64,000 bases of DNA from an uncultured virus (IMG/VR IMGVR_UViG_3300035188_001343). Its lineage: Duplodnaviria > Heunggongvirae > Uroviricota > Caudoviricetes. The stretch's first letter is position 1, and each line of letters begins with the position of its first letter. This document shows positions 39,751 through 58,135 of the stretch, in pieces. The notes under the pieces are model-generated. The model had not been told where the DNA came from. It searched no databases and worked only from the letters and a program-made list of their open reading frames with translations. Where the stretch lies: the IMG/VR virus record IMGVR_UViG_3300035188_001343; one strand, given 5' to 3'. Position numbers and translations under genes: made by a program.

Positions 39751-39773
39751 TTTCAGTATTAAATAGTGATATA

Positions 39774-39807: not shown

Positions 39808-39808
39808 G

Positions 39809-40681
39809 TTAAGATTTACGTCGTTTGTTTTTAAATACACTAACTTCAAGTTTATCAGTTTCAAAAGGATATTTTGCCTCTTTATAATAATCTTTTCTGG
39901 CTTTTATATGTTTTCTATCAAAAACCAAGTTCGATGTTAAATCAATAACATTCAAATGTTCTTTTTGACCATCTTTTCTTCTCAACCCTCTACCAATAGA
40001 CTGAATATTTCTCGTAAAACTTTTTCCAGGTGTTGGTGCCAAAATAATATTATTGATATGCACAATGTCTAACCCAGTTGACAAAAGAGAATAAGTTCCC
40101 ACTGCAATATGTTTACCGGCATAAACAAATTCATTGAATTTTTCCTGACGTTTATTCAAATTTAATTTCGAACTAATATAAGTATAATTTAACAAATCAG
40201 CCATTTCTTCTGCAGGCTCAATATTTTTCATCAGAATCAAGGTATTTCCATCTAAAGTATCTACCAACGCCTTAACAAAGTTTCTAAACATGTCATTCGA
40301 TTGTAAAAAAATGGTTTCATCGTGCCAATCGACAAATACATCGATATATTCTGTTGGATACACCAACTCAAAAATGCTAATATGGATGCTTGATAATATG
40401 TTTTGACTCTGTAATTCATGTGCCTTGATATTATAGGTTACTGGTCCAAAACCTGCAGTAAGATTTGCTCTAGATAACGCATCTTTAGGAATTGTACCTG
40501 TTAAACCAATACGCATATATGAATTAACAGCGTTACTCATTATTTGTTGAGCTACATATGCCTTTGCAGTGTGACAATTTTTAACACATATTTCGTTTGC
40601 AAAATAATTATGGTTATCGGCAATATGTAAATTATACACATCACCATCATAATCTATTTCTTCAATTTTTTTAATTTTCAT
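39809..40681 (-). CDS. split intein C-half + UvsW-like SF2 helicase C-terminal part (piece 3)
   Basis: 35-aa IntC MKIKKIEE...VYNLHI...NYFANEICVKN then C+1 H; GLTGT, STGLDI, QSIGRGLR. Confidence 0.88.
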   Translation of the reverse strand: MKIKKIEEIDYDGDVYNLHIADNHNYFANEICVKNCHTAKAYVAQQIMSNAVNSYMRIGLTGTIPKDALSRANLTAGFGPVTYNIKAHELQSQNILSSIHISIFELVYPTEYIDVFVDWHDETIFLQSNDMFRNFVKALVDTLDGNTLILMKNIEPAEEMADLLNYTYISSKLNLNKRQEKFNEFVYAGKHIAVGTYSLLSTGLDIVHINNIILAPTPGKSFTRNIQSIGRGLRRKDGQKEHLNVIDLTSNLVFDRKHIKARKDYYKEAKYPFETDKLEVSVFKNKRRKS

Positions 40682-40698
40682 ATTTTACTCTCAAACCA

Positions 40699-41673
40699 TC
40701 AGTAATCAGATGAATTAAAACTGATTACATCATCATCGGTAGTTAAACAATCAACACGAATCCAACCTTGTTGGGTTAACACCTCATGATTTCCAGTTAA
40801 TCTTATAATGGAACCATCTACCATCGTCAATTGAAACATTTTCTGGTTTTCCGATTTCTTCAAATTTTTATGTATTTTAATAACGGGTTTATCTTCAATT
40901 GTATTGTTCGTTTCATTTAATGTTTTAACCAAATCCCCAACGGTTATCTCATCAATTCTTTTCTCTGAATTATCGGACATTTTAATCATACTGCCTGGGT
41001 GTAAACATTCATCCCATATAACACATTCAAAATCCTTAATAAATGATCTGTTGTTTTGTAATGTTTGCCAGGTAGCAACAATATTATGGGCTTCTTCATT
41101 TTTACCACTGCCAAACATACCCACTGGAATTTCAAACTGTTTTATATATTCGGCAGTTTGTTTCAATAGTGATGATGAAGGTACAACAATTATCACACGC
41201 ATGTTTAATTTGTTTGCATATTTAACAATTGCTGAGGTTAATAATGTATTGTGGTGAATAAAACCCATCGAGCATCGATATAGATGCTCCGGACTATCCA
41301 CTTCAATGTCAAACACATCTACTACAGTATCATTTATCTTGATACCAGTAATAATTTGTTCAACGTCATCTCCAATGACGTTTAATTTATCACCAACAGA
41401 TAATAAATCGGCAAATACAAGGTTTTTATCTTGCAACTGTATTAAATGTTTATTCGCACAACACACTGTATGTACATTGTTTATTGTCAATTCAACAGTT
41501 TTAGCAGTCTTTTTTATCAATCCCTTTACTGGCACCCAATTGTTTAACTCGTTCTGAATTTGAATTGGTGTGGATTGAAAATATTCTGTATCATAAATGA
41601 ATTCAACACCTTCTTCTAATGCTATCAATTCAAATAGATTGTTGTACGTAATTTCGACTTCTTTTAATCCCAT
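40699..41673 (-). CDS. IntC + UvsW-like helicase middle extein + IntN (piece 2)
   Basis: Long IntC ending FIHHN (41248); 80-aa extein TLL...VVPS...ATWQ...IWDE; IntN from CLHPGS (41007) with TGNH. Confidence 0.88.
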   Translation of the reverse strand: MGLKEVEITYNNLFELIALEEGVEFIYDTEYFQSTPIQIQNELNNWVPVKGLIKKTAKTVELTINNVHTVCCANKHLIQLQDKNLVFADLLSVGDKLNVIGDDVEQIITGIKINDTVVDVFDIEVDSPEHLYRCSMGFIHHNTLLTSAIVKYANKLNMRVIIVVPSSSLLKQTAEYIKQFEIPVGMFGSGKNEEAHNIVATWQTLQNNRSFIKDFECVIWDECLHPGSMIKMSDNSEKRIDEITVGDLVKTLNETNNTIEDKPVIKIHKNLKKSENQKMFQLTMVDGSIIRLTGNHEVLTQQGWIRVDCLTTDDDVISFNSSDY

Positions 41674-41814
41674 CAAATAAATTCCCTAAATTCAATATTT
41701 ATTCATATAAATTAATATTTTACAATATTTTCTACAAAAATAGTCGAAGCTCATCAATATAATTCAACCTGGGTAGTATAAATAAGTTAAAATTAATTAA
41801 TAAGGAAGCATAAA

Positions 41815-42171
41815 ATGATTATTGTATTTGATAAAGATGTAGATAAAAATATAACAGATATTTACACTACAGACACTTCAGTGGACGCAACTAAAGTTTT
41901 TTGGAGTTCATTAGGTAGTTCGGTATGGGTAATCGATGAGAAAAATTTCAAAATTATGATTTGTACTGACAGTGTTACAATAACGTTCAATAGTAAAGAT
42001 GCGTTAGAACCATATATTACACAAAGAAAATTATTGGCACCAAATTGGATTTATCCAACTATAAAATATAATACCGATCCATACTATGATTTACCTAAAA
42101 CTGGTGTTATTGAACATCATGTTTATAAAAATACAGATGTTGAAGCAGATTTGAAAAAAAATATGTTATAA
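41815..42171 (+). CDS. hypothetical protein
   Basis: AAGGA SD. Confidence 0.55.
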   Translation: MIIVFDKDVDKNITDIYTTDTSVDATKVFWSSLGSSVWVIDEKNFKIMICTDSVTITFNSKDALEPYITQRKLLAPNWIYPTIKYNTDPYYDLPKTGVIEHHVYKNTDVEADLKKNML

Positions 42172-42209
42172 TATATAACTAAACATTAATATTATTAGGG
42201 ATAATTATC

Positions 42210-43019
42210 ATGTTGTTAGTAGATTTAAATGAAGAAGCAAAAGAAAAAGTTTTAAAAGGATTAGGGTTATCATTAACCAAAATTAAAACGTTCGATGGAT
42301 GTAATTACAAGTATTACTTACAATATATTCTCAAAGAACCATACGATAAAGCTGCCTTCAATCCAAAGTATTTCAAAATTGGTCAGTTTGCACATAAATG
42401 GATTGAAAGTGAAATAAAAGGAGTGGTGTGTGATTTTGATTCCTCAACACTAACCGATGAAGATAAACAAAAAACTATCGGTAATTGTGCTAAGGTATTC
42501 CAAAACGAGTATATTAAAAGTATTATTGATAAAGGTGAACCAGAAAAAGAGTTTTCCTTATATATCACACCAACCGAATCGGATGGATTAGAAGCAAAAC
42601 CTACATTCTTAAAAAACGCAGATTTTCATGGGTATATTGACTATTACGCGAAGATTGGTGATACGATACACATCATTGATTGGAAAACAGGGGGTTATAA
42701 AAAAAATACCGATGATGATACATTTATGCAGTTATTTTTATACGCTAAAGCTTGTCAAAAATTAGATGATGGAAATAACTTTGTGTTGAGTTACTATTAT
42801 TTAGATCACGCAAAGATTGTTACGCAGGAACTAAGTATTTCTGAATTAGATGCAAAGATTGAAGCGGTTGTTAAAAAAGGCATAACTATTCCAACGAAAA
42901 ATGATGAAAGTTTATTTCCTGCATCACCTAGTTGGGCGTGTAAACTTTGTCCATATTCTAAAGTAAGAAGTAGTGATAATATCATACCTTGTAAATTCAC
43001 AATACAACAAACAACATAA
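42210..43019 (+). CDS. Cas4/AddB-like PD-(D/E)XK exonuclease
   Basis: N-terminal C, GYID, IIDWKTG, QLFLY, C-terminal CKLC...C. Confidence 0.8.
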   Translation: MLLVDLNEEAKEKVLKGLGLSLTKIKTFDGCNYKYYLQYILKEPYDKAAFNPKYFKIGQFAHKWIESEIKGVVCDFDSSTLTDEDKQKTIGNCAKVFQNEYIKSIIDKGEPEKEFSLYITPTESDGLEAKPTFLKNADFHGYIDYYAKIGDTIHIIDWKTGGYKKNTDDDTFMQLFLYAKACQKLDDGNNFVLSYYYLDHAKIVTQELSISELDAKIEAVVKKGITIPTKNDESLFPASPSWACKLCPYSKVRSSDNIIPCKFTIQQTT

Positions 43020-43069
43020 TATATTGTATAATTTATTAAATTAATTTAACTCAGAGATAGAAAAAAATA

Positions 43070-43807
43070 ATGAACCAAATTGACGATACTGAATATGATG
43101 ATATGATTGCATCTGAGCATTATTCAAAAAGAAAATCTAAATCTGATCGTGAAAAATCACATGTTATAGATGTTGAACATAGAGAAAGAGTGCTGTTATC
43201 ACAATTACTGAATAATGCCGAATTGTTTATTAAAGGTATCGCATTCTTAGAAAAAGATTTTTTTGAATCCAAAATAAACAGACTCATTGTTGGATTTATA
43301 AAAAATTATTACGAAAATTACAAAAGTATTCCACCAGAAGATGCCATTTTGATTGAATTAGGTATTGATGATGCTCGACATGATTGGTTGGATGTAGAAA
43401 AACAATGGCCATCCGAATACTTAGAAGATTATTTAAATGCTTTCATAAAAAATATGAGTATGAAAGGGGCAATTGAGGATTCTATCGAGTTACTCGAATC
43501 GGAAGATTATGGGGCAATTGAAAAGAAAATTAAAGATGCTGTTAATGTTGACTTAGATATTAAATTGGGTGTTACTATTGACAATGATAAAGCGGGATTT
43601 AAAAATTTGTTTGATATGTTGACATCACAAGAAGCAACAATTCCAACAGGATGGGATAATGTTGATGAGAAATTAGATGGTGGCGTAACTGTTCCATCAC
43701 TAAATTATATTCTAGCTAAAAGTGGTGGTGGTAAATGTGTTTTTCACGATACATTAGTAACCATCAAAGTATCAAAAGATCTTTATAACCGACTTTTAGA
43801 AGCTTAA
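43070..43807 (+). CDS. DnaB/gp41-like replicative helicase N-extein + 23-aa intein N-half (piece 1)
   Basis: IPTGWDNVDEKLDGG, AKSGGGK then CVFHDTLVTIK... (43736) and stop. Confidence 0.85.
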   Translation: MNQIDDTEYDDMIASEHYSKRKSKSDREKSHVIDVEHRERVLLSQLLNNAELFIKGIAFLEKDFFESKINRLIVGFIKNYYENYKSIPPEDAILIELGIDDARHDWLDVEKQWPSEYLEDYLNAFIKNMSMKGAIEDSIELLESEDYGAIEKKIKDAVNVDLDIKLGVTIDNDKAGFKNLFDMLTSQEATIPTGWDNVDEKLDGGVTVPSLNYILAKSGGGKCVFHDTLVTIKVSKDLYNRLLEA

Positions 43808-43813
43808 ACAGGT

Positions 43814-43844
43814 TGGGGAGTTTTCATTAAACTCCCCACTTTTT
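43814..43844. terminator. terminator after helicase piece 1
   Basis: TGGGGAGTTT-TCATT-AAACTCCCCA + T tract. Confidence 0.7.
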
Positions 43845-45027
43845 AACAATTCAACCAGTTTAACCTGTCATTAATTATTTTGAGAATGAAATCTCTATTT
43901 TTTTCAAGTGGAACAGAACTCCAAATTTCAAAAACATCAAAATTATTAGATTCTTTCAATAATCTATGTTTAGTAAGATCATACTCTCTAACTTCTTCGG
44001 CGGTTTTTAAATTATAAGGCTGTTGCCAATTAATCCATTTTTCTAAATCATTTTCTAACCATTTTGGGTTCGGATGAAATACCTCACCATTATATTCAAA
44101 ACACAAATTCAATTCTGGTATTGTCAAATCAAATAACCACCATCTATTATCGACAAAAATTCTAAATTCCGTATTTTCATCTTCACCAAAATAGTAATCA
44201 ATATCACAGGATTTTAAATAATCTAATATTGGTTGGAAACACAAAATTGATTCTTTCGATGCCTTTCCAATGGTTGAATATTTTTCTTTTTTCTTACTTT
44301 CATTGAACGCATGTAAATTAAACTGCCACCTTTCCTGTCTTTCTTCCCATCTTTTTAAACCATCTATTTCACCATATTTTGCAATGCATTTTTCTTTTGA
44401 AAAAGTAGTTTGTCTTTCAGTTACTTTTTTTAATGCATCTTCTTCAGAATATCCTTGATTAACCCAGTAAAATTTCGTATTAGGCATTTTCTTAGCCCAA
44501 TTTTCATATTCGATTTCTCGTTGTTTTGCTTGTTTGATATTTGTACTGTCTGCCCCTTTCTTTGCAATTTCTGAAACCTTAACTTTAGCTTCTTTTTCAG
44601 AATAACCCAAACCAATCCAATAACTGACATTGAATGTTGAGATACTTCGTTTCCTTTTGATTTCATCCCAAATTCTTTTTCCTTCTATTTCACCAAATTT
44701 GTCAATGTAATTATTTGCAGTTTGAGAATATTTTTTTCTATTTGAAATTTCGGTCCAATATTCCTTTCCAGCTTCTTCACCCATCATTAAAATATATCGG
44801 TCCCTAGTAATCGCATTTCCTAACAATTTTAATTTTTCCAATCTATCAACCCAATTTTGTAAATCATATTTCACAAAATACGCAACATTCTTACAATTCA
44901 CATTTCTAATTCGTCCAAAAATTTGTTCTAGTTCTAGAATTTGTGATTCGTGAGTAACTGTCAATTTAAAATCATTTCCCAGAACTGATATTACTTCGGG
45001 TAGTTCATTAAACTTTTTCTTTCTCAC
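43843..45027 (-). CDS. free-standing homing-endonuclease-like protein between helicase pieces
   Basis: KYGEIEG / GYSEEEA repeats; FDL...FEYNGEVFH; DxxK; EIWS. Confidence 0.7.
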   Translation of the reverse strand: MRKKKFNELPEVISVLGNDFKLTVTHESQILELEQIFGRIRNVNCKNVAYFVKYDLQNWVDRLEKLKLLGNAITRDRYILMMGEEAGKEYWTEISNRKKYSQTANNYIDKFGEIEGKRIWDEIKRKRSISTFNVSYWIGLGYSEKEAKVKVSEIAKKGADSTNIKQAKQREIEYENWAKKMPNTKFYWVNQGYSEEDALKKVTERQTTFSKEKCIAKYGEIDGLKRWEERQERWQFNLHAFNESKKKEKYSTIGKASKESILCFQPILDYLKSCDIDYYFGEDENTEFRIFVDNRWWLFDLTIPELNLCFEYNGEVFHPNPKWLENDLEKWINWQQPYNLKTAEEVREYDLTKHRLLKESNNFDVFEIWSSVPLEKNRDFILKIINDRLNWLNC

Positions 45028-45189
45028 GCGTATTTCTCCAAGTTATTCTTTGATAGCTCTTTTAATTACTCAGTCTTTAACTATCATTTTTTCCTTAATG
45101 ATTTTTTTCAAACGAAGGTGTAATTGTGGTGAAATTGTAAATCCACCTTTAACTCTTTTTTTAGTATCATCGATTTTTGGTTTGGATAT
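45025..45189 (-). pseudogene. degenerate ribbon-helix-helix-like small gene
   Basis: SD GGAG, ATA in place of ATG, SKPKIDDTKKRVKGGFTISPQLHLRLKK...KD*VIKRAIKE with internal TGA and a 3' frameshift. Confidence 0.4.
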
Positions 45190-45286
45190 TTTCTTCTCCA
45201 AATTTATTTTTTGATAGTATAATATATTTTAGTATTATTATACATTTGTTTACACAACCTTAATATTTTTTTATCAACGTTATGAG

Positions 45287-45676
45287 ATGATGCTTATGCT
45301 TAAAGAACTTTTAGAAATGGTCGTAGTGAAAATAATGAAATTTGATAAAGAACATGATTTAACCCTTTTAGAAAGCACAAATGAAAATGCCTTATTAAAG
45401 GTAAAGTTTAATGATGTTGATTGTGGACTTTTGATGCTGACAACTGATTGTGATTTGAATCGAAAAGCAATAATACTTTCAAATACAATTAAGAATACCA
45501 TTTTTGATTTTTTTATTTTGATGAATGTTGATAACATTATAGTAATGTTTACAGATCATCAAGGGAATTTGTTCCCACAACACATTTCAACAAAAAATGA
45601 AAATATGGTAGAATTAGTTTGTAGTAAACCTTTTCTAAAAAACCTTATAGCAAATCGCGGAGTTGAATATCTATGA
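45287..45676 (+). CDS. hypothetical protein
   Basis: ORF ATGA-coupled to helicase piece 2; true start probably downstream. Confidence 0.5.
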   Translation: MMLMLKELLEMVVVKIMKFDKEHDLTLLESTNENALLKVKFNDVDCGLLMLTTDCDLNRKAIILSNTIKNTIFDFFILMNVDNIIVMFTDHQGNLFPQHISTKNENMVELVCSKPFLKNLIANRGVEYL

Positions 45677-46857
45677 ATGTTATCGAAAACACTGAAAATG
45701 ATGTAGAAATCCAGTTAACAATGGGTGAACTATTTGAAAAAATGGAAAAATTAAGAAATCTCAAATTTTCTGATACCGATGATGATGAACAAATTCTAGG
45801 AATTGATGAACAATTCAAAATAAGAAACGAACACAATGAGTGGATCGATGTTATTGGTATGGTAACAAAGTTTGATTCAGTAGATGAAATTACGTTCGAA
45901 TCTGGAAACAAATTGAGAGCATCCCCAAAACATATACTTGCCTATGATAAACTACATACCAAATATCTAAAAGACTGTAAGGTGGGTGATAAAATAAAAA
46001 AAGCTGATGATGAATTTGACACTATTGTTTCGATAAACAACATTAGTAATAGAGGGAAACTGTATGATCTACAAGTCGCATCAGATACTCACCTGTACCA
46101 AACATCCGATGGTTTAATTCATCATAATTCTATCGGTTTAGTTAATCTTAGTTGGAATTACATTCAACAAGGAAAAGATGTAATTTACATTTCATTAGAA
46201 TTAAAAGAAGCTAAAATTATTAAAAGGTATATTACTCATTCCACAAAAATAAAAACCTTCGATATTCCGAATAAAGAATTTGAAATTTTTAACCATCTTA
46301 AAAAATGTGATGAAAAAGGTTATGGTAGGTTTACAACTCATTTTTACCAACCAAATACATTAACATCAATGAAGTTGGAATTGTTTATAAGACATTACAT
46401 ACAAAAATACAGCACTGTGCCAGTAATTGTAGTAGATTACGCAGGTTTAATGATTCCCAATACCAAAGGATGGCAAGGTATGTTTGAGCGAGACAAGTAT
46501 GTTTCGGAAGAATTGAGAGGTGTTGCTACTCTATTTAACACAGTAGTATGGTCGGCAGACCAATACAACCGGTGTATTGCGTTTGGTGAAACTGTAGAAA
46601 CACCAACAGGTAAAAAAAATATAGAAGATATTGTAATTGGTGATAAAGTTTTGGGTACTAATAATGAATTCAGATTAGTAACCGATGTTACCGAACCCGA
46701 TGAACAAGAAGTTTATGAAATTACTACTAAAAGTGGTAAGAAAGTAGTAGTATCGGGCAGACATATTTTTCCTAAATATGTTGATGGAAAAATAATAGAT
46801 GACAATATTTTTTGCACCCTTAAAGTTGGTGATTCGATTTATGTAAATGGGGATTAG
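45673..46857 (+). CDS. IntC + DnaB-like helicase middle extein + IntN (piece 2)
   Basis: 152-aa IntC ending LIHHN (46128); extein SIGL...YISLE...VVDYAG...SADQYNR; IntN from CIAFGE (46573) with SGRH. Confidence 0.88.
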   Translation: MNVIENTENDVEIQLTMGELFEKMEKLRNLKFSDTDDDEQILGIDEQFKIRNEHNEWIDVIGMVTKFDSVDEITFESGNKLRASPKHILAYDKLHTKYLKDCKVGDKIKKADDEFDTIVSINNISNRGKLYDLQVASDTHLYQTSDGLIHHNSIGLVNLSWNYIQQGKDVIYISLELKEAKIIKRYITHSTKIKTFDIPNKEFEIFNHLKKCDEKGYGRFTTHFYQPNTLTSMKLELFIRHYIQKYSTVPVIVVDYAGLMIPNTKGWQGMFERDKYVSEELRGVATLFNTVVWSADQYNRCIAFGETVETPTGKKNIEDIVIGDKVLGTNNEFRLVTDVTEPDEQEVYEITTKSGKKVVVSGRHIFPKYVDGKIIDDNIFCTLKVGDSIYVNGD

Positions 46858-48380
46858 TCCCCATTTAAAAATTTGTTACATGATTCAATAACATTTTGTT
46901 GATTATTTTTGTAATCATTTTCCCAAACCACTTTCACATCGAAACCTCGGTTTTCTAAAATTTTAACTCTCAATGCGTCATGTTTTCTTTTTTCAAACAC
47001 TGTTAAATTATCACATGGAAGTACATAGTTATCATCGTAAAAATCTGGGTTTCCATGCCAAAAATCACCGTAAAACTCAATGATTTTATTTCCCAAAAGA
47101 AAATCTGGGCGGATAAACATTTTTTTTAGAATTCGATATTCATCAACAGTTAAAGAAATGAGTTCTTCATTGTCTCCAAATTTTGCATGGTTACAATCTA
47201 ACTTGGTGAACAAATCAAAGGAAATCATTGAATAACTTTTTGATAGTTTCGATTGATGTTCGTTCCACCGATTAGTGCCTTCCACATTACCGTAAAGCCT
47301 AATGTAATTTTTCAAGGTATATTTTTCACGTTGATTCACCTGCATATCACTAAACGCCTCTACACCTTTTTGTTCACCAAACAACTCAATTTTTCTTTCC
47401 AATGTTAAATTACCTGCATTGTGGTTACATCGATTCTTAAATTTTTCTTTCCCTACTAGCAATCCATACTTTGCAATGTAGCCTTTTTCCGAATTTGCAA
47501 ATGAAATCTTTTCTCGATACTCTTTCCATTTTCTCAACCCTTCTTCTACACCATATTTTTCAATTAATCGATTTTCCGATATAGTACACCTCAATTTCTT
47601 TTCTTCAAATCTTCGCAATCCTTCAATTTCACCAAATCGTAAAATATGAATTTCTTTTGATGATGCATCTGTTTTCAAATGAGCTAGTAACCTATCAAAT
47701 CGGTCTAAATAATTATCATCTACCCCATATTTCACCCAATATGCTAAATTTTTTTTCCTATCATCGGTAACTGTTCTTTTCTCTAATACCTCAGTAACTT
47801 TTAATTCCATTTCTCGACTAATTATGGTGTCATCCAAAATATGTTTGACGGTTTTTCGATTCTTCCATCTGTCAAAAAGAGTATTACACTGCTTAATATT
47901 GTTCACACCATACTTTTCAATGTTTGTTCTTTCTACCTTATATTTAATTTTTTTAGATGCGAAACCTAAACCACCACACGATTTCACTGTTGATTCTTTT
48001 CGTTTTAATTTAATTTTTTCAGATGAATACATACATCCCCTCGAACAAAATTCATCATACCCCTCTTTTGGGCTTCTAAATTTAGTTGATTTTCCACACT
48101 CACAAATATTGGGTGTCATACTCAATCGCAAACAATATAATCTTTCCGATATAGTGCTACAATCAACCAAGTATGAAGTCATATTAACTAATTCCATAAC
48201 TAGTTCACGATTTTTTACCTTGTTTTTGTTGTATGGTTTTGAAATACCGCTCGGGTAAAACTCTTTTAATATCTCTTCGCTTGTCATACCAAAAAACCTA
48301 TTTTCAATCACATTTGGTAAATATTTTACATTTTTTATAGTATAATATAATAAACATTTTGAATTATAATGGTCACACAA
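46854..48380 (-). CDS. free-standing homing-endonuclease-like protein
   Basis: CECG...FCSRGC, KYG repeats, RPDF...IEFYGDFWHGNP, VVWE; true start may be internal. Confidence 0.7.
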   Translation of the reverse strand: MCDHYNSKCLLYYTIKNVKYLPNVIENRFFGMTSEEILKEFYPSGISKPYNKNKVKNRELVMELVNMTSYLVDCSTISERLYCLRLSMTPNICECGKSTKFRSPKEGYDEFCSRGCMYSSEKIKLKRKESTVKSCGGLGFASKKIKYKVERTNIEKYGVNNIKQCNTLFDRWKNRKTVKHILDDTIISREMELKVTEVLEKRTVTDDRKKNLAYWVKYGVDDNYLDRFDRLLAHLKTDASSKEIHILRFGEIEGLRRFEEKKLRCTISENRLIEKYGVEEGLRKWKEYREKISFANSEKGYIAKYGLLVGKEKFKNRCNHNAGNLTLERKIELFGEQKGVEAFSDMQVNQREKYTLKNYIRLYGNVEGTNRWNEHQSKLSKSYSMISFDLFTKLDCNHAKFGDNEELISLTVDEYRILKKMFIRPDFLLGNKIIEFYGDFWHGNPDFYDDNYVLPCDNLTVFEKRKHDALRVKILENRGFDVKVVWENDYKNNQQNVIESCNKFLNGD

Positions 48381-48931: not shown

Positions 48932-48932
48932 T

Positions 48933-49349: not shown

Positions 49350-49368
49350 ACTTTTTAGGAGTTTGTGA

Positions 49369-49755: not shown

Positions 49756-49766
49756 TCAAAGTCAAT

Positions 49767-49810
49767 TCTGTTGAATCTTAGGATAATAAGATACTCTAAG
49801 ATTCAACAGA
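49767..49810. terminator. bidirectional terminator
   Basis: 15-bp inverted repeat TCTGTTGAATCTTAG / CTAAGATTCAACAGA. Confidence 0.7.
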
Positions 49811-49816
49811 CTAAAA

Positions 49817-50236
49817 TCATTTTGGTGAATTAATGAGACTATGTGAAGCCATAAAACGAACCAACCCTCGTAAACCATAAGTAACTATTGTTATTCCAAC
49901 TAATAAACCAACATACCAATCGGGAATACCTTTCATTATTTCAAACCCAGTAACTGCAATTTCTTGAATTCTAGGTATAAAGGAAACAATCAAAGGTGAA
50001 AATAAAATAACCAAAATAAATTCATCCTTCCAGCTTTTATCCATCTGTTCCATTGCGGTTCTATCCAGACTTTCATCACTACCAATATCTTTACCAGATT
50101 CAATAATTTTTTCTTCGATATCGAGACGTTTTAACCGAATCTCATGTTCTCTGGTGTCAATCACCATAGACCGTTCGATTTCGAGTGCTTTTCGTTTTTC
50201 TTTTTCAGTTAAATAAGAATTAAATTTTTCAAACAT
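49817..50236 (-). CDS. GTA-type 3TM holin-like protein
   Basis: SWKDEF...P...FIP; GF...PDWY; YGLR; AGGAGG SD; upstream ATAAATA. Confidence 0.7.
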   Translation of the reverse strand: MFEKFNSYLTEKEKRKALEIERSMVIDTREHEIRLKRLDIEEKIIESGKDIGSDESLDRTAMEQMDKSWKDEFILVILFSPLIVSFIPRIQEIAVTGFEIMKGIPDWYVGLLVGITIVTYGLRGLVRFMASHSLINSPK

Positions 50237-50357
50237 ACTACCTCCTAAAGGTTGTATCACTATTCAAAAATATTTATCAGACAATTTTTTTTTGAAAATT
50301 CATACATTCACCAAATTTCCATATAAATAGTATAAAATCTTAACTTTAGGAGGTAGT

Positions 50358-50561
50358 ATGTTTGATAACGAAAGAACTTTAAAATGGTCAGATGGAATCT
50401 TAAAATTTCCATGTGGTGTTACCGTTGAATTAGATGAAAAACAATTAAAAAAGTTACTCACGGCTTTCAAATTAGAATCCGAAATTGATAATATGATTAA
50501 TAACGGTTCAATGACAATTGCAAAAGGTAGAGCATTCCAAATTAAACACCACTTAACGTAA
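50358..50561 (+). CDS. small hypothetical protein
   Basis: AGGAGG SD. Confidence 0.6.
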   Translation: MFDNERTLKWSDGILKFPCGVTVELDEKQLKKLLTAFKLESEIDNMINNGSMTIAKGRAFQIKHHLT

Positions 50562-50580
50562 TATCCATTTATTTGTGGGG

Positions 50581-51873
50581 TTATTCTATGGTAATAGTAT
50601 CAAGTAAATCCCCACCTTCTATATGCATTTTATAGATATTACCTCCGTTACGAACCTCTAATCTAAAAGTAAGCAATATATTCTTTTTAGAATTAACTTC
50701 CCGAATGCCAAATTTCGGTCTTTTATTGTCTAAGGCATAATAAGCTTCCAATTCATACGATGATAATTTACTTTCAATATCTTTGTAAGAAAAAACTTTA
50801 AAATCCCCTTTATTTAAATGTACCTTAGATACATCCTCATCTTTTGTTGCAAAATATTTAATAGCAGAGCTAAGAGTGTGAATAAAAGTTTTCTCACCAC
50901 CTTTTTGTTGGAACATTTTATTCAATTTAATTGTAGTTAGTTTAAACACTGAAGCATACCAGTCTTCTTCTTTTACAAATGGTGCGTTCCACTCTTTTAT
51001 ATCAATACCCAAACGTTCTATTGCATCACTAATTTTCTCATATGATACACCCGTTTGTTCCAAGTTTTTTGTTTGACCGGCTTTTAATGATAAATTTAGA
51101 TTGGTTAATACTGGTTCACCTTTATTAATACCAATCATAACTTTCAAATCAACCTTAGTTCCTTTTTCATCTACCGAACCAACCGAGGAAATATCTACAG
51201 TGTCATCAGTGCCATTATTACCCAATAAATCTGCGTGCTCAAAAACATATGTAGAATTTGCGTATTTAACTGCTGCGGTGAATTCATCATTCATCATTGA
51301 CCAATTTTTATCATCAAACAAAGCTTTTAATTGTGCAGGTTTTAAACTTATGGTTAGCGAGATATTATCATTACCTGATTTTGGTGTTTTGTCAGATTTT
51401 AATGATGTCGATGCAGTTTTAGTAGATTTATTCATCGATGTTAAAATACTTTTTATATCATCAATATCAATAGTTTTAAATGGTTGCTTGAACTTTGCCG
51501 CAATAGCTGCACCTAAAATACCTTCCGCAACATCACCCCTATTAAACTTAACATCACCAACTGAAAATGGTGTTTTTTCAATTTTAGTCCATGATATTAA
51601 TTTAGCGGGTACACTATCATCATCAATTGTAAATCGCCCATCTTTGCTTTTTAAAAAATCTCTAACCTGATTATCATCGGTAAAACTTCTAAGTTTATCA
51701 ATAACATCATTCTTCTTTATGATTACCATAGTGGTTTTATCACTAAGTTGAATTTGTTCACCTACATCCACTTTTTGTAGAAATTTTGCAACATAATTTC
51801 TACCAGGTTTTGTTATATCACCATACGAAAACCCACCTTCTAATAAAACACTTATAAGTTCAACTACATTCAT
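50581..51873 (-). CDS. hypothetical protein, possible restriction-endonuclease-like fold
   Basis: GDVAEG...TKVD...LSLK; upstream ATAAATA. Confidence 0.55.
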   Translation of the reverse strand: MNVVELISVLLEGGFSYGDITKPGRNYVAKFLQKVDVGEQIQLSDKTTMVIIKKNDVIDKLRSFTDDNQVRDFLKSKDGRFTIDDDSVPAKLISWTKIEKTPFSVGDVKFNRGDVAEGILGAAIAAKFKQPFKTIDIDDIKSILTSMNKSTKTASTSLKSDKTPKSGNDNISLTISLKPAQLKALFDDKNWSMMNDEFTAAVKYANSTYVFEHADLLGNNGTDDTVDISSVGSVDEKGTKVDLKVMIGINKGEPVLTNLNLSLKAGQTKNLEQTGVSYEKISDAIERLGIDIKEWNAPFVKEEDWYASVFKLTTIKLNKMFQQKGGEKTFIHTLSSAIKYFATKDEDVSKVHLNKGDFKVFSYKDIESKLSSYELEAYYALDNKRPKFGIREVNSKKNILLTFRLEVRNGGNIYKMHIEGGDLLDTITIE

Positions 51874-52047
51874 AAAATTCCCTATTTTAATTTTTAATAC
51901 TAATATTTATCATACATACTAACAAAAACTATATACAATACCATGATTAAATTTTAAAATAGTATATTCTTTTTAAACAATTTCACTTTCGTGTGAATAT
52001 TTTGTAAAATTAACACATAAATCAATCAACAATAAAAGGAAAACCTA

Positions 52048-53154
52048 ATGACACCTAGAAAAATTTTTTCAATACCTTTAAACCCATATACCACAGCAGA
52101 AGATTATGAAAAAATATTTGTGCCGTTTTTATTGAAATATAAAGATTGGATCTACGACATTTATTTTACATGTAGAATCCCACCATTCTTACAAGATAGT
52201 ATGGGTGCAGTATTTAAAGAAGAACAACTCATCCAAATGTTTCAGAATGCGATGACATTACAAGAACGTACCGGTGTAACCGTTTCTGCGACTTTCAACA
52301 ACATTAACGTACCACCTACAACTGAAAATTTAGAAATTTTTGTCAACAATTTACAATATCTATATGATGCAGGTTTAAGAAGTATGACCCAACCACATAA
52401 TCATTGGATGATGTCAAAAGTATTCAAAGAAAAATTTCCAGAATTACAAGTTAAAAATACAGTATTGAAACGTGTTGCAACCGCACAAGATTTTTGGTTA
52501 GCCGCAGAACTCGGATATGATTATGTCAATATTGATAGAATTTTACTAAGAGATGAAACTATGTTGGGTAGAATTCGAGAAGCCCAAATTAAATTCCAAG
52601 CAGAAACTGGTAAATATGTACCAACAGCGTTATTAGCAAATGAAGGGTGTCTCGGTAAATGTCCCGCAATGAATGAACACTACACACTCAATAGTGCCAG
52701 TGGTTCAAGACAGCCTGGAACTGATAAACCTTACTTCCATCAATCAATTAGTAAAAACACCTGTCCAAAATGGAGATTAGAAGATCCTGCTTATTCATTT
52801 AAAATGGCTAATATCCCACCCTATAGAGAAGATGTTGAACGTATTCTTGATAAAGTGGATATTCTTAAAATGCATGGTAGAGAAGGATTTGGTCTACTAA
52901 ACTCAACAATATCATTTGTCGAAAGTTATGTAAATGCTGACGCAGAATTATTCGATATTTCAGTTAGAACACAGATTGAAGATTTAATGGTGCAACCTAA
53001 AGTGTTGGATGCATGGAGAACACATATTAGAGATTGCAAATTTGAATGTTGGGATTGTCACTTATGTGATAAATTAGTTGAATCGGCACAAAAGAAAAAA
53101 GATAAAAATCTAGGAACTTCAATCGATCAATTGATTGCGAATTTTGAAGGATAA
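52048..53154 (+). CDS. peptidase U32-family-like (Fe-S) protein
   Basis: LANEGCLGKC...C, LKMHGRE, C-terminal CxxxCxxCxxC. Confidence 0.65.
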   Translation: MTPRKIFSIPLNPYTTAEDYEKIFVPFLLKYKDWIYDIYFTCRIPPFLQDSMGAVFKEEQLIQMFQNAMTLQERTGVTVSATFNNINVPPTTENLEIFVNNLQYLYDAGLRSMTQPHNHWMMSKVFKEKFPELQVKNTVLKRVATAQDFWLAAELGYDYVNIDRILLRDETMLGRIREAQIKFQAETGKYVPTALLANEGCLGKCPAMNEHYTLNSASGSRQPGTDKPYFHQSISKNTCPKWRLEDPAYSFKMANIPPYREDVERILDKVDILKMHGREGFGLLNSTISFVESYVNADAELFDISVRTQIEDLMVQPKVLDAWRTHIRDCKFECWDCHLCDKLVESAQKKKDKNLGTSIDQLIANFEG

Positions 53155-53220
53155 TACAGCGTCGGTTTCTCTGGGATATTTTCTCAGAGAAACTATCTAA
53201 ATTTTTACATGGGGAAACAA

Positions 53221-53661
53221 ATGAAATTAGGTACAATACTTACAAAAACTACACCTACCGTATTTTTAGGTGGTACATGCAATGAATCTTTATGGCGAGA
53301 TGAATTAATAAAATTATTAAATGTCAATTATTTCAACCCTGTAGTTGATGATTGGACGGAAGAGGCACAGAAAAATGAATTATATCAAAGAGAAAATTGT
53401 GAATTTGTTCTCTACGTTTTAACACCTGCAATGACTGGTGTTTATAGCATAGCTGAGAGTGTTGATGATTCAAATAAACGTCCAGAAAAATGTTTGTTTT
53501 GTGTGTTGCCAACGGATAACAAACTGTCATTCGATAAGACACAATTAAAATCATTAAATATGGTTAAAAATATGATTGCTGAAAATGGTGCTAAAGTTTT
53601 TGATTCATTGGAAGAAATTGCGGAATTTTTAAACAGTACAGTTGATCTTGAAAAAAACTAA
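53221..53661 (+). CDS. nucleoside 2-deoxyribosyltransferase-like protein
   Basis: VFLGGTCNESLWR, FNPVVDDW, YSIAE. Confidence 0.7.
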   Translation: MKLGTILTKTTPTVFLGGTCNESLWRDELIKLLNVNYFNPVVDDWTEEAQKNELYQRENCEFVLYVLTPAMTGVYSIAESVDDSNKRPEKCLFCVLPTDNKLSFDKTQLKSLNMVKNMIAENGAKVFDSLEEIAEFLNSTVDLEKN

Positions 53662-53774
53662 CCTATCAATCACTTCGATTATAGACAAACAGAAAATAAC
53701 GTTGGTAATCTTTGGATATTTTACAAAGAAAAAACACAAAAATAAATATCAATCTTAAAAATAAGGAATTAAAA

Positions 53775-54689
53775 ATGGCAGTTATTCAAAATATCTTTAA
53801 AAACCTCGAATACAAACTTAACATGACCGAAGAAATTAAACTCTTTAAATGGTCACAAAAACCCATCATAGAAAAAATTTCTGATTTGATGGACTGGAAT
53901 GAATCATTTGGTCCAGATGCCATTATTGTAAAGGCAGCAGAACAAATTCTACAACTGAATTACCCAAACGAGTATTTAAAATATTCTGCGGCTCAACAAA
54001 AATTTAAACATTCCCACCCGTTTCACATCGAACCAGAAATTGAAGATGTAAGTGGGTTTATCGATTGGATTAATAGCGTATTTGATAAATTTGAAGGATT
54101 GCAAGAAGGGTTACTTGGAGGATTAGTTATTAGTCCCGCTGTAGAAGGAACTACTGTTTCTTGTGAATATGAAAAAGGCAAATTACAACGAGTCCTCAAC
54201 AAGGGGGATGGTGAAGATGCAGAAATGTTAGTAAATCTTATGGATTTAGGTTCAATTCCTCAAGAAATTTCAATTAAAAAGAACATCGTCGTAAGAGGAG
54301 TAATAACTTTAAAGGATCCATCTAAAAGATCTAAAGGTTCATCCGTTACTGCTACAGTTAATGAAACAATTTTCAAAGATAAGGCAGATGATACAAATTT
54401 AATATTCTTACCTACAGAATGGTTGCCTGCAGATGGTAATAGAATTAATACCTCCAAAGCATACCAAACTTTAAAAGATAATGGATTTCAAGTACCTGCG
54501 GTTTTTACAGCATCACAGGTCGTAGAGGCACTTTCCAAATATGAGGAATATATGGGGACGGATTTTGGTTATTATGTTTACGGTGCAAGAGTTGAAATTG
54601 AAAAAGGTGAAACAATAAACAGTTTATTATCTTTTATGAAAGATGATCAATCATCGAGTTACTATCATAAAGTAATCATAGTGAAGTAA
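53775..54689 (+). CDS. NAD-dependent DNA ligase adenylation-domain homologue, probably inactive
   Basis: SPAVEG...YEKGKLQRVLNKGDGEDAE...VVRG parallels LigA EPKxDG...Y..G.L....TRGDG..GE...EVRG; catalytic Lys absent. Confidence 0.6.
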   Translation: MAVIQNIFKNLEYKLNMTEEIKLFKWSQKPIIEKISDLMDWNESFGPDAIIVKAAEQILQLNYPNEYLKYSAAQQKFKHSHPFHIEPEIEDVSGFIDWINSVFDKFEGLQEGLLGGLVISPAVEGTTVSCEYEKGKLQRVLNKGDGEDAEMLVNLMDLGSIPQEISIKKNIVVRGVITLKDPSKRSKGSSVTATVNETIFKDKADDTNLIFLPTEWLPADGNRINTSKAYQTLKDNGFQVPAVFTASQVVEALSKYEEYMGTDFGYYVYGARVEIEKGETINSLLSFMKDDQSSSYYHKVIIVK

Positions 54690-54703
54690 AAACACATATT
54701 ATC

Positions 54704-55192
54704 TCATTGGTTTTGATAATTATTGACTATTCCATCACCTGTGTACTTAGCAACCCATGAAATCTCATTAGTAAAAAATCGAGCAGCAGTGAATCCGGCA
54801 TCATCACAAAAATCAAACCAATGTTTTGTAAATGCCGGAATTCCAATCACATCTCCTTCTACACAATGAATGATATACACTAAGTCATCAATGTGAATAT
54901 AAAATTTTCCACCACCTTGTATAAAAAACCTAATTTCATAATCTGAATGAGTATGTTCTCGGAAAAATTTTTCTCTGAACATACCAATATTATTTTCATC
55001 GGGTAAAAAAGTTACAACATCGGTATTAGACACATTAAACAACTCTTTTAATTTCATTATACTACGTTCGGATTTATCATGTGACCTATTATCGAAATAA
55101 ATTCCAATCTCTAAAAGAATGTTTTTAATAATCTCAAATTCGGTAGAGGTATACATATTAACATTATTTGAAAAAACAACTAATTTACTCAA
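54704..55192 (-). CDS. mtnD: acireductone dioxygenase
   Basis: EHTHSDYEIRFF, GGGKF, GDVIGIPAFTKHWFD, AARFF, W. Confidence 0.85.
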   Translation of the reverse strand: MSKLVVFSNNVNMYTSTEFEIIKNILLEIGIYFDNRSHDKSERSIMKLKELFNVSNTDVVTFLPDENNIGMFREKFFREHTHSDYEIRFFIQGGGKFYIHIDDLVYIIHCVEGDVIGIPAFTKHWFDFCDDAGFTAARFFTNEISWVAKYTGDGIVNNYQNQ

Positions 55193-55216
55193 TTTTATTT
55201 CTCCTAAAACCTGATT

Positions 55217-55507
55217 TTATTTCTTTTTTGCCCATTTTTTAAATGTTTTTGCAAGTGTTGCTCGTTTCTTTTTTAAAGCCCATGCATCATACTCTTTTTT
55301 TGACATATTACCATTTTTAAATTTAATTTTTGCCTTTTCATATTCCTGCTCAACATATTTTATACAAGAGTGCGATGATTTTTTAAATCCCATCTCTTTA
55401 CATTGTGCAGTAAATGAACCAACAGTACCTTTTTCTTTCATGGATTTTGCGACATCTTGAGCCCACCATTCACATATCAAACTACCATTTAATTCTTGGA
55501 GTTTCAT
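55217..55507 (-). CDS. small basic protein with MKLxEL N-terminus
   Basis: W(A)QD...GSFTAQC...KRATLAKTFKKW. Confidence 0.6.
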   Translation of the reverse strand: MKLQELNGSLICEWWAQDVAKSMKEKGTVGSFTAQCKEMGFKKSSHSCIKYVEQEYEKAKIKFKNGNMSKKEYDAWALKKKRATLAKTFKKWAKKK

Positions 55508-55857
55508 GATAAATCGACAATCAGTTTTTTCATATCTTTTTCAGATGTAATGGTGAAATCATATTGTGTGGTTGGAATAACTTTTGGATCAATAGCATCC
55601 TCATGTGTATCATGGTGATCAATTGCAGCAACCAAAACACCATCCTCATTTCTAAAAGATATTCTGCCTTTACCAGATACAACATTTGCATTAAAATTCA
55701 AAACATATTCACTATCTTCACCACCATATTTAACATCGACGTTAGAATTTTTAAAATTCTGCTTAATAAGTTTTCTTTGATCGGGAGTTAATGGTAACAT
55801 TTTTGGTTTTTGTGGTTTTTTACCAAATATACTTTCATTCAAATCTAATAATTTCAT
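55504..55857 (-). CDS. hypothetical protein with MKLxDLNE N-terminus
   Basis: AGGA SD; TATAAATA upstream. Confidence 0.6.
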   Translation of the reverse strand: MKLLDLNESIFGKKPQKPKMLPLTPDQRKLIKQNFKNSNVDVKYGGEDSEYVLNFNANVVSGKGRISFRNEDGVLVAAIDHHDTHEDAIDPKVIPTTQYDFTITSEKDMKKLIVDLS

Positions 55858-55881
55858 AAATTATTATCCTTTTATAATTTT

Positions 55882-55899
55882 GTATAATATTTATTTATA
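55882..55899. promoter_or_regulatory. adjacent opposite-strand promoter boxes: GTATAAT (+) and T4-late-type TATAAATA (-)
   Basis: GTATAAT at 55882-55888; TATTTATA at 55892-55899. Confidence 0.5.
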
Positions 55900-55910
55900 A
55901 ACACATTAAG

Positions 55911-56948
55911 TTGAGCAAAAATATGATATATGCATGTATAAAAGATTTCCCAAATACGTCTATTGTTGTTGGTGATGAACTTGAAATAATTAAACTTGAA
56001 AACGGTGAATACATAATAGATGGTGCAATTACAACTGATAGCACTATCGTTTATGAATTTTTTGAAAAAAAGAAACTAAAAGGTGTAATGTATTCTCCTT
56101 ATTCACATTCTAAAATGGAAACATGGGTATCATGTCCAAAAAAATTTGAATATAATTACATCATCAAACCACCCAGAGTTGAAATACCAAATGCAATTTT
56201 AGAAAAAGGAACTCTTTTTCATGCAATACTCGAATTTGACATGGTTGATAAATTAGATGAATTTAGTATTAACGATAAGTTCAAGGCATTAAACAAATCT
56301 ACCGCAAATGAAATAATTGAACAGGCATTAATTTTTACAGATGAATCCAAAACGTATCAATGGATAAAATCATTAGACGGTATTAAGGTTACTGAACAGG
56401 AAATGTTTTTAGGTGTAGATTTAGAACCAGTACAAGATATTTCAACTGCTCTTATAAGAGGATTTATTGATTTACTAATATACGATGAAAAGACTAAGAC
56501 CTGTTACATTTTTGATTGGAAAACAGGAGGGAAATCTAAAGAATCTTTGGAAAAATGGCCGAAACCAAAGGATCAATTGGAATTATACGCTGTTTGGGCA
56601 GAACAAAATTTTGATGTTGCCTCAATCATTACAGCATTCATTTACGTTGAACATGACCATATAGCAAAATACCATTTTAAGAAAAATGATATTTCGGGAT
56701 TGAAAAAGAAATTTAAAGATAAGATAAGTAACATTGAAACAGATAACACATTTTCAAAAAATTTATCTCAATTATGTGCATGGTGTGATTTTCGCACATT
56801 ATGTCTTGGTATAAGTATAGAGAGAGAACCTAGATCAATAACATTAGACGAAATAAAAGTTGCAAGTAAAATGGTTGGGGTGGAAAAAAAGAATAAAGAA
56901 AATAGTAAAAATAAAAAATTTTTTGATAAAATCAAACAAAAATTTTAA
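55911..56948 (+). CDS. Cas4/AddB-like PD-(D/E)XK exonuclease
   Basis: SHSK...CP, RGFID, FDWKTG, QLELYA, CAWCDF...C. Confidence 0.8.
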   Translation: MSKNMIYACIKDFPNTSIVVGDELEIIKLENGEYIIDGAITTDSTIVYEFFEKKKLKGVMYSPYSHSKMETWVSCPKKFEYNYIIKPPRVEIPNAILEKGTLFHAILEFDMVDKLDEFSINDKFKALNKSTANEIIEQALIFTDESKTYQWIKSLDGIKVTEQEMFLGVDLEPVQDISTALIRGFIDLLIYDEKTKTCYIFDWKTGGKSKESLEKWPKPKDQLELYAVWAEQNFDVASIITAFIYVEHDHIAKYHFKKNDISGLKKKFKDKISNIETDNTFSKNLSQLCAWCDFRTLCLGISIEREPRSITLDEIKVASKMVGVEKKNKENSKNKKFFDKIKQKF

Positions 56949-57021
56949 AATTATAATTTAACGGGAACCTAGGGTTATTATTGATTCACCATTGGTTCCC
57001 ACTAACAGGAAACCACTAATA

Positions 57022-57558
57022 ATGTCAGAAAAAAAAAGAATACCAATAACTATTGAAAAGATAAATTCATCAACCTTCCAATTAACCAAAATATCTTCTG
57101 TTGATATAGCGAAAATTTCTGAAAAATTTTCGTGGTTGCCAGCAAACTACAAATATGACCCAAAATTCAGATTGTTAGGTATCAAGGGTGTCAAAATAAG
57201 ATTAGTACAGCAAAATGGTATGTTTCCATCGGGTCTATTTAATGATGTAGTAGATTTTATTAAAAATGATTTAAACAAACAAGTAACTATATCGGATGAT
57301 ATAAATGAACATTTTTTATCACTAGTTGATTTTTTTAAAGATGGAATCAGTGATAAAATTTTTTCAGATTTTGAATTTGATGGATCACCTGTTATATTGC
57401 GAGATTACCAATTGGGTGCGGTTGAATCGAGTTTTGAAAATAGAAATTGTCTTTTAAACCTTTCAACTGGTGCTGGTAAATGTTTAGGAGGAAATACCAA
57501 ATTGAAAGTTAAATTACCTACAGAAATTATTGAAAAATATCCACATTTATCCGAATAG
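57022..57558 (+). CDS. UvsW-like helicase N-extein + 25-aa intein N-half (piece 1)
   Basis: LRDYQ Q-motif, STGAGK then CLGGNTKLKVK... (57481) and stop. Confidence 0.85.
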   Translation: MSEKKRIPITIEKINSSTFQLTKISSVDIAKISEKFSWLPANYKYDPKFRLLGIKGVKIRLVQQNGMFPSGLFNDVVDFIKNDLNKQVTISDDINEHFLSLVDFFKDGISDKIFSDFEFDGSPVILRDYQLGAVESSFENRNCLLNLSTGAGKCLGGNTKLKVKLPTEIIEKYPHLSE

Positions 57559-57567
57559 GTATTATTT

Positions 57568-58070: not shown

Positions 58071-58135
58071 AATTGGTAACTACTTAAATCTTTAGTATAA
58101 TATAGAAATATTTACATTTATGAGAAATTTATACT

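Follow-up and report, generated by a model that had tools for sequence, protein, structure and literature searches.

Three genes and two predicted split inteins for one UvsW-type helicase in a lake-water jumbo phage

How can one enzyme be made from three genes that lie on opposite strands, one of them about 15 kb from the other two? The question is raised by a stretch of 64,000 nucleotides (nt) from an uncultured virus of the Caudoviricetes (IMG/VR record IMGVR_UViG_3300035188_001343), which we analysed at its full length and call the window. A preliminary description, made from the letters of the window alone, had read three of its open reading frames (ORFs) as pieces of a UvsW-like helicase that would need two protein trans-splicing events to become one chain. 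Our follow-up leads to the same answer: the UvsW-type helicase is very probably made as three polypeptides, here called P1, P2 and P3, which two split inteins, a and b, join into a protein of 488 amino acids (aa).

Three reading frames and one helicase

The three ORFs are intact. P1 (57022-57558, + strand) encodes 178 aa and ends LNLSTGAGK/CLGGNTKLKVKLPTEIIEKYPHLSE, followed by the stop codon; here and below a slash marks an intein junction. Its first 153 aa, the N-extein (57022..57480), comprise UvsW_N and the first part of RecA domain 1, as far as the Walker A motif STGAGK. The remaining 25 aa (57481..57555, with the stop codon at 57556-57558) are the predicted N-terminal half (IntN_a) of an atypically split intein. 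A TTG at 56992, in frame upstream of the P1 ATG, is also open; homologues start at the position of the ATG.

P2 (40699-41673, - strand) encodes 324 aa in three segments. A 142-aa head ending GFIHHN and followed by Thr at +1 is the predicted C-terminal half of the atypical intein (IntC_a, 41248..41673). The middle extein of 80 aa (41008..41247), TLLTSAIV...ECVIWDE, starts at the Thr of Walker A and ends at the DE of the DExH box. The 102-aa tail, CLHPGSMIKMS... (IntN_b, 40702..41007, stop codon 40699-40701), is the predicted N-half of a canonical split intein. P3 (39809-40681, - strand, 290 aa) opens with the corresponding C-half, a 35-aa head ending ICVKN and followed by Cys at +1 (IntC_b, 40577..40681). 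It continues as the C-extein of 255 aa (39812..40576), which begins CHTAKAYVAQQIM and holds the CH of the DECH box, motif III and RecA domain 2. The spacer between P2 and P3 is 17 nt long (40682..40698), with GAGAG upstream of the P3 ATG. The two genes lie on the same strand in different frames, with no ORF between them, so the break at junction b is not a plain in-frame stop codon in a mini-intein.

The ORFs are present exactly where the preliminary description had placed them, with the ends that it gave, and a scripted recount of the segments (153, 25, 142, 80, 102, 35 and 255 aa) returned its extein total of 153+80+255 = 488 aa. Its further statement that the genes are separately transcribed stood in part. 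It holds for P1 against P2 and P3, and P1 is the only piece that clearly has its own transcription unit; for P2 against P3, which are adjacent on one strand, it may not hold. Promoter and terminator scans around both loci gave counts not above those of shuffled sequence.

All three pieces match helicase families. In Pfam, UvsW_N (PF21241) is found in P1 (E 6.8e-6, 26.9 bits against a cut-off of 25.3), the P2 extein gives a ResIII/DEAD match (ResIII E 3e-6) that is followed by Hint, and Helicase_C is found in P3 (E 8.4e-8). T4 UvsW is the best solved match both of P1 (1rif/2oca residues 24-143, up to its P-loop, E 1.5e-5) and of P3 (2oca residues 232-471, from DECH onwards, E 1.4e-8). The pieces thus hold between them what characterises a UvsW-type superfamily 2 helicase, namely UvsW_N, two RecA-like domains, Walker A, a DExH box and Helicase_C. 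The helicase's Walker A and DECH motifs arise only when the pieces are joined in the way that we infer.

Contiguity of the exteins was judged piece by piece, each piece being aligned separately. On phrog_16, a helicase profile of 986 positions, P1 covers 234-303, P2 303-386 and P3 385-616. Relatives without intein a have an uninterrupted GTGAGKT... (P0085, P0122), and relatives without intein b read IWDEVHGAKAYVAQQIM (P0075 and the orthologue in G002, a related IMG/VR record of 224 kb) where this phage has IWDE/.../CHTAKAYVAQQIM. Two claims of the preliminary description are borne out by these results: the UvsW-type identity, through the three Pfam matches and the structural matches of P1 and P3, and the contiguous alignment of the exteins, which lie end to end on phrog_16, with P1 and P3 also placed on T4 UvsW and with relatives that read through both junctions. 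No match to the locus was found by megablast among 50,697 phage records.

Two split inteins in one enzyme

Intein a interrupts Walker A between GK and T. We predict that it is a class 1 split intein of the atypical kind, with a short N-half and a long C-half, and that its nearest known relative is VidaL. Its 25-aa IntN and 142-aa IntC are encoded by separate ORFs, as expected of an atypical split. Cys1 (C154 of P1) and Leu2 (L155) are invariant in 30/30 aligned homologues of IntN_a, and Thr6 is nearly so; conservation of the tail behind GAGK in all 30 speaks against a chance feature. On the other half, His76 (block B), Asp122 (block F) and His141-Asn142 are invariant in 16/16 sequences, and the residue at +1, Thr here, is T or S in all 16. 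As a single sequence IntC_a matches known inteins weakly (NrdJ-1, E 0.0026). A profile of eight IntC_a-type halves from this phage and G002 matched VidaL (6vgv) at E 1.7e-16, CatC (6dsl) at E 2e-10, gp41-1 at E 3.7e-10 and PolB16 at E 8.8e-6, and also Spl DnaX; besides VidaL, 20 further intein/HINT chains were matched at E <= 0.01.

The atypical inteins described in the accessible part of PMC13014065 are broken either after strand beta-2 (position S1; VidaL, PolB16) or after helix alpha-1 (position S2; AceL-TerL, with an IntN of 25 aa, and GOS-TerL). IntN_a has the same length as the AceL-TerL IntN, and this length, together with its PTEIIEKY segment, suggests that intein a is probably split at S2. 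A cis form of intein a in a relative (P0077) runs from Cys144 to residue 306, 163 aa compared with 25+142 here. As this is about the sum of the halves, the split of intein a appears to be a plain break without an endonuclease domain.

Intein b interrupts the DECH box and is predicted to be a canonical split intein like that of Salmonella phage S16, with a 102-aa IntN that starts at Cys, a 35-aa IntC that ends at Asn, and Cys at +1. IntN_b, with TGNH as block B, matches Hint (PF01079, E 3.3e-8) and TIGR01445 intein_Nterm (E 4.5e-5, 24.4 bits against a cut-off of 24.5). IntC_b matches positions 122-155 of the 155 of Intein_splicing (E 2.3e-5) and TIGR01443 intein_Cterm (19.1 bits against a cut-off of 15.6). 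The preliminary description had proposed running HINT models on the halves; Hint, intein_Nterm and intein_Cterm recognise intein b, and the eight-half profile ties IntC_a to VidaL.

The S16 genes gp114, gp114.1 and gp115 (HQ331142) provide a close parallel. As here, uvsW is fractured at DE/CH by a related canonical split intein: gp114 ends MMNDE/CFDGDTLIK...NDDIVEWK, and gp115 starts ...VVYNLHVKTNHNYFANGALAHN/CH, very like the ...DVYNLHIADNHNYFANEICVKN/CH of P3. By tblastn, P2 residues 153-320 are 34% identical to the S16 sequence (E 1e-24), with IntN_b homologous to the end of gp114. Unlike the helicase studied here, that of S16 is in two pieces, its Walker A is uninterrupted (PTSAGKSL) and gp114.1 lies between the halves. 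The S16 record annotates no intein.

Assembly of the enzyme would proceed as follows. P1 (178 aa) would be translated from the + strand block, and P2 (324 aa) and P3 (290 aa) from the adjacent - strand genes 15 kb away. The IntN_a tail of P1 would dock on the IntC_a head of P2 and complete a HINT fold. Class 1 chemistry would then run from a thioester at Cys1 through acyl transfer to Thr+1 and cyclisation of Asn142 to an acyl shift, joining ...STGAGK to TLLTSAIV... and rebuilding Walker A as GAGKT. Independently, IntN_b at the end of P2 would pair with IntC_b at the head of P3 and, through Cys1, Asn35 and Cys+1, link ...VIWDE to CHTAKAY..., which would restore the DECH box. The end product would be a contiguous 488-aa helicase in a lake-water jumbo phage whose genome is at least 351 kb. 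This size comes from a working composite of 351.5 kb, in which G001, a 306-kb sequence that is identical to the window over 1-18800 and stops there, short of the helicase genes, is joined to the rest of the window. Extein contiguity, the conserved catalytic residues and the intein models support the two trans-splicing events of the preliminary description; the association of the pieces in the cell, the splicing chemistry and the order of the two reactions are what we infer from these features.

Pairing of the halves of intein a was also modelled. A complex of P1 130-178 with P2 1-160 gave an ipSAE of 0.77 (runs 0.78, 0.76 and 0.77), compared with 0.24 for the best of three controls; similar split-intein complexes have already been solved. 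The ipSAE mark applied is reached by 116 of 157 solved complexes and by 2 of 215 mismatched pairs, counts that are rough because our own alignments were used. Contact agreement between the runs was at least 61%, the pLDDT (predicted local distance difference test) of the partner was at least 59, and P1 residues 151-178 formed the modelled interface with IntC_a. The model supports binding of IntN_a to IntC_a, and likeness to the solved complexes may partly explain the pass.

Such a model supports docking and is silent on chemistry, and would equally suit three proteins that assemble non-covalently, with the intein halves serving as docking domains only. There is a precedent in the accessible part of PMC3045599, where a fragmented phage NrdA assembles through interaction domains without an intein. 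For this helicase we consider such an arrangement very unlikely. The residues that only splicing requires (Cys1, the block B His, the terminal His-Asn, and Thr/Ser or Cys at +1) are kept in distant homologues. The breaks, moreover, fall in the P-loop (GK/T) and at DE/CH, so that without splicing the active site would have to accommodate some 170 or 137 additional residues.

Relatives and the separated layout

The three-piece design is found beyond this phage. Relatives sought among viral contigs with P1 or P2 as single queries gave none; the N-piece alignment reached them. The P1 family comprises 72 clusters, with proteins of 124-218 aa at 41-100% identity, and 30/30 aligned N pieces from these clusters end GAGK/CL..., followed by 13-38 aa and a stop codon. 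An exhaustive search with P2 gave 1592 matches at E <= 0.001, and we sorted its best 150 representative clusters by script. Six have the architecture of P2, with IntC_a at the N-end and IntN_b at the C-end (P0073, P0078, P0082, P0087, P0096, P0115). Four are split at site a only, four are cis at a and split at b, one is cis at both sites (P0095, 791 aa) and one is cis at a only (P0201). A further 75 are S16-like N pieces, split at site b only. As far as these predicted architectures go, all combinations of the two sites occur naturally and the three-piece form is recurrent. A head of the IntC_a type is also found on RecA-like exteins (P0200, P0207). In the most distant N-piece orthologues (P0067, P0069, P0071, P0072) the IntN has 13-15 aa, for example CLGADMKIKVKIDDK, and the position of the split seems to vary within this one orthologous family, from S2-like to S1-like.

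Several points weigh against assembly of the helicase by trans-splicing. TIGR01443 scores IntC_a below its cut-off (13.7 against 15.6 bits, E 0.056), and Pfam Intein_splicing remains below the gathering score on every piece. Threonine, the +1 residue at site a, is a rarer nucleophile than cysteine or serine, and in intein b the terminal Asn is preceded by Lys (VKN), where His would be usual. Correct pairing of the UvsW halves needs specificity, as the genome holds two close paralogues of IntC_a. The working composite is not closed, the tail of the window and the start of G001 sharing no sampled words. One RNA run, which could not tell RNA from DNA, gave no contig on any of the three ORFs. Lastly, no listed contig of the independent sequencing runs, all of them 1.2 kb or shorter, spans 41.7-57 kb.

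The Lys in intein b could be a sign of decay, with one or both inteins no longer splicing and the pieces left as remnants of a dispensable helicase. The absence of the homing-endonuclease gene that S16 has between its halves, where there is a gap of 17 nt only, would fit such a history. We find it highly improbable, since the three ORFs are intact and the identities to G002 are 61%, 81% and 72% for the N-, middle and C-exteins, and 52% for IntN_a and 39% for IntC_a, with the catalytic blocks kept. The intein halves thus appear to drift faster than the exteins, yet retain the residues of catalysis. In addition, the N piece is kept in all 72 clusters, and the six further clusters with P2-like middle pieces end right after IntN_b.

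Is the separation of P1 from its partners itself real? In G002 the N piece lies at 161993-162520(+), and the remainder of the helicase, headed by IntC_a, is encoded by an ORF of 469 aa at about 145.05-146.46 kb(-). The two are 15.5 kb apart on opposite strands. The G002 helicase has DEVH and lacks intein b, which suggests that intein a and its separation are older and that intein b is a later gain in the lineage of the window. The neighbours are homologous as well: the N piece is preceded by a Cas4-like PD-(D/E)XK nuclease (60% identity), and the helicase has PhoH behind it (54%) and a 117-aa ORF upstream (39%). The roughly 15-kb, opposite-strand layout of the preliminary description thus recurs in G002 with the same strands and the same neighbours.

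Its proposed check of read support across 41.7-57 kb fared less well. In three independent lake-water runs, coverage extends to every one of the 30 bins of 39000-58500, for the most part with an identity of at least 99%, and the junction between P2 and P3 lies within a single contig of an independent run (X3, record 8, 40063-40922, 0 differences); the longer interval is covered bin by bin and bridged by no listed contig. Listed read joints with sides of 22-23 nt were set aside. The window comes from a metagenome assembly, and with contigs as short as these the 15-kb gap and the strand switch might be an artefact, P1 really lying beside P2. That is scarcely credible in view of G002, an independent assembly in which the same spacing, strands and homologous genes on both sides argue against a mis-assembly. 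Moreover, IntC_a, the middle extein and the C-extein were absent from 14/14 metagenome loci that hold the N piece. Flanks of about 10 kb on either side are available for five of these loci, and flanks of 10 kb and 8.3 kb for another (L037); the source contigs of the loci reach 261 kb, and contigs of 261 kb and 221 kb are among those with 10 kb on each side.

Other inteins of the genome and known systems

All ORFs of the composite were scanned with iterated local hidden Markov models and motif searches, the extein families being assigned by Pfam and PHROGs. Apart from the two inteins of UvsW, the scan gave a further eleven that are split and two in cis. This brings the split inteins to at least 13, in UvsW, DnaB, TerL, UvsX, NrdA, topoisomerase and an AAA ATPase. 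The preliminary description had named another IntN or IntC partner elsewhere in the genome as a finding that would speak against its reading. Such halves do exist, and each has a partner of its own by extein continuity: the seven short IntNs match the seven long IntCs one to one, and so the other halves do not undercut the UvsW pairing.

Two of these inteins are close to intein a. The AAA ATPase is encoded in two adjacent pieces about 250-270 bp apart (G001 3413-5035(-) and 1110-3158(-); L003), with its Walker A broken as GEPGIGK/CLRGNQEIIVEIDEVLYKTILEIRAEKLK (CLRGNQ...) by an intein with a 29-aa IntN. Its IntC is the closest paralogue of IntC_a (phmmer E 1e-15, 29% identity). The N piece of a DnaB-like helicase (window 43070-43807(+), phrog_19 152-366) ends SGGGK/CVFHDTLVTIKVSKDLYNRLLEA, with a 23-aa IntN. 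Its middle piece (window 45673-46857(+), phrog_19 367-507) has an IntC_a-like head (...GLIHHN/S), a DnaB_C extein and a canonical IntN tail (YNR/CIAFGE...). The DnaB-like head matches that of P2 with a phmmer E of 1.5e-12, and the UvsW, AAA and DnaB-like IntC heads are 28-29% identical. No C piece of the DnaB-like helicase was found in the window or in G001, including by a PF03796 DnaB_C search of G001. That the IntN of P1 also splices to the AAA ATPase or DnaB-like IntC and yields chimeras, as three related IntC halves in one genome, a shared G-x-G-K/C break and Thr or Ser at +1 might lead one to expect, can hardly be the case when the IntC halves are just 28-29% identical, the short IntNs and long IntCs balance at 7 and 7, and the three IntN peptides diverge strongly past their first residues (CLGGNTKLKVKL..., CLRGNQEIIVEI..., CVFHDTLVTIKV...).

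To our knowledge, descriptions of natural split inteins give each protein a single break, which nearly always falls between adjacent genes. Dassa, London, Stoddard, Schueler-Furman and Pietrokovski (2009; PMC2677866) described phage replication and packaging enzymes fractured by natural split inteins. In the accessible part of that paper, the three coding regions of a locus share one strand, and the two halves flank an endonuclease gene. A single split intein is present per locus, although DnaE-1 also carries the C-part of a further, in-frame intein, and the eight enzyme types that are named do not include UvsW. The breaks described there are accompanied by Vsr-like or free-standing endonuclease genes, and similar ORFs lie here beside the split DnaB and topoisomerase genes. 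In contrast to those loci, junction a has its halves on different strands, with 15 kb and many genes between them, junction b is free of any intervening gene, and two trans reactions would be needed; a single strand with an endonuclease gene between the halves is found at neither junction.

The atypical split inteins listed in the accessible part of PMC13014065 are VidaL, AceL-TerL, GOS-TerL, Cat and PolB16, a handful of metagenomic cases with IntNs of 15-37 aa. Intein a differs from them in its host protein, a UvsW-type helicase, in its site, Walker A, and in its longer IntC of 142 aa. P-loops of ATPases are well-documented intein sites, according to the accessible part of PMC4760082. Cyanobacterial DnaE resembles the present case in having a natural split intein and two genes that are far apart in the genome, and differs in being cellular, in its canonical split site and in having two pieces only. 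The DnaE halves lie on opposite strands, hundreds of kb apart. Engineered ligation of three segments follows the same logic as the helicase, the middle piece carrying the IntC of one intein and the IntN of another, but is man-made, whereas the design here is natural and conserved. A ligation of this kind with two orthogonal split inteins was reportedly carried out by Humberg et al. Engineered split-intein joining is also described in the accessible part of PMC11271493, for dystrophin delivered by three vectors.

No description of a split intein in uvsW was found in the literature searched, subscription journals being mostly outside its reach. With the same exception of most subscription journals, the search for a natural protein made from three genes by two split inteins gave engineered systems only. 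The mechanism itself is not new, but the natural layout is unusual. What is new is that a single enzyme combines two intein types and three genes, with one partner 15 kb off on the other strand, that this layout is conserved in a clade of lake phages, and that the genome around it is unusually rich in split inteins.

The separation might itself be functional. UvsW activity would then need two separately controlled units, with trans-splicing acting as a post-translational AND gate. T4 UvsW governs the switch from origin-dependent to recombination-dependent replication. We regard a gate of this kind as unlikely. If it were real the principle would be genome-wide: at least 13 split inteins divide seven core enzymes into some 20 pieces, which in some cases are scattered (TerL, four over 60 kb), and mutually orthogonal short-N inteins would be required.

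With or without a gate, nature very probably already uses the engineers' middle-piece design. The seven short-N split inteins of the genome, three of them close paralogues at G-x-G-K/C, form a test set for orthogonality, and short-tag ligation tools could be drawn from them. In annotation work, the three-piece helicase explains 'hypothetical proteins' of about 180 aa with UvsW_N (72 clusters), and it warns that such phages will seem to lack intact helicase, terminase and ribonucleotide reductase genes.

The remaining inteins of the composite vary in type and arrangement. A topoisomerase/gyrase A-type subunit is in two pieces (window 26651-27193(+) and 27230-28483(+)) with a canonical split at ...LHPHGD/CIDYNSE. 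Its IntN is on an ORF of 180 aa and its IntC on the next ORF, ending ...LVIHN/S. The large subunit of class I ribonucleotide reductase (NrdA) is encoded by three adjacent colinear genes (G001 106990-108756(+), 108775-109890(+) and 109977-110468(+)) with two canonical split inteins, and the pieces cover 1-212, 204-389 and 390-523 of Ribonuc_red_lgC. A UvsX/RecA-like recombinase is also in three pieces (G001 241174-241470(+), 241513-242856(+) and 243880-244614(+)). The first has an 18-aa IntN after ...IFGDSG/CLLPHEK, the middle one a long IntC head (...ISSHN/SGKS) and a canonical IntN tail, and the last an IntC that ends ...IISSN/C.

TerL may be encoded as four scattered pieces joined by three split inteins (G001 184957-185400(-), 169358-170113(-), 230001-230798(+) and 200201-201526(-)), with three short-N breaks at SRQMSK/CVKGNS, KFVY/CLDGKT and IEFE/CMYPDT. 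The middle two pieces cover 398-522 and 522-641 of phrog_36964. The first is without a family match and the last has only a weak 'terminase' match, so that these two assignments are weak and the four-piece gene is tentative. A search for the TerL pieces in G002, which is a fragment, gave only cross-matches to the UvsW IntC. The two cis inteins are both in a T4-like portal protein (Portal_T4 E 7.8e-63; G001 63427-66627(+)) and both start from CL(S/A)LDTKIPLLDG; the second is long enough for an endonuclease domain.

Endonuclease-like genes accompany some of these loci. Antisense ORFs with endonuclease-like ends (43843-45027(-) and 46854-48380(-)) flank the DnaB-like middle piece; phrog_22677 matches both, and phrog_3339, a homing endonuclease family, matches 46854-48380(-). 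The latter is one of three paralogous DUF7487 genes of the window, all on the - strand (19088-20215, 25385-26596 and 46854-48380), two of which stand beside split-intein genes. The one at 25385-26596(-), DUF7487/homing-endonuclease-like, lies antisense just upstream of the split topoisomerase. By our own reading of the motif, the C-terminal ends of the DUF7487 proteins appear to resemble Vsr-type endonucleases. Further partial DUF7487 copies lie at about 263-273 kb in G001.

Downstream of P1 is a pair of RNA-repair genes, Hen1 (58136-59407(+), Hen1_N E 5e-70) and Pnkp (59444-62119(+), with PNKP ligase, phosphoesterase and kinase domains). A GroEL-type chaperonin gene (20980-22614) and NAD-salvage genes (62845-63999) are also nearby.

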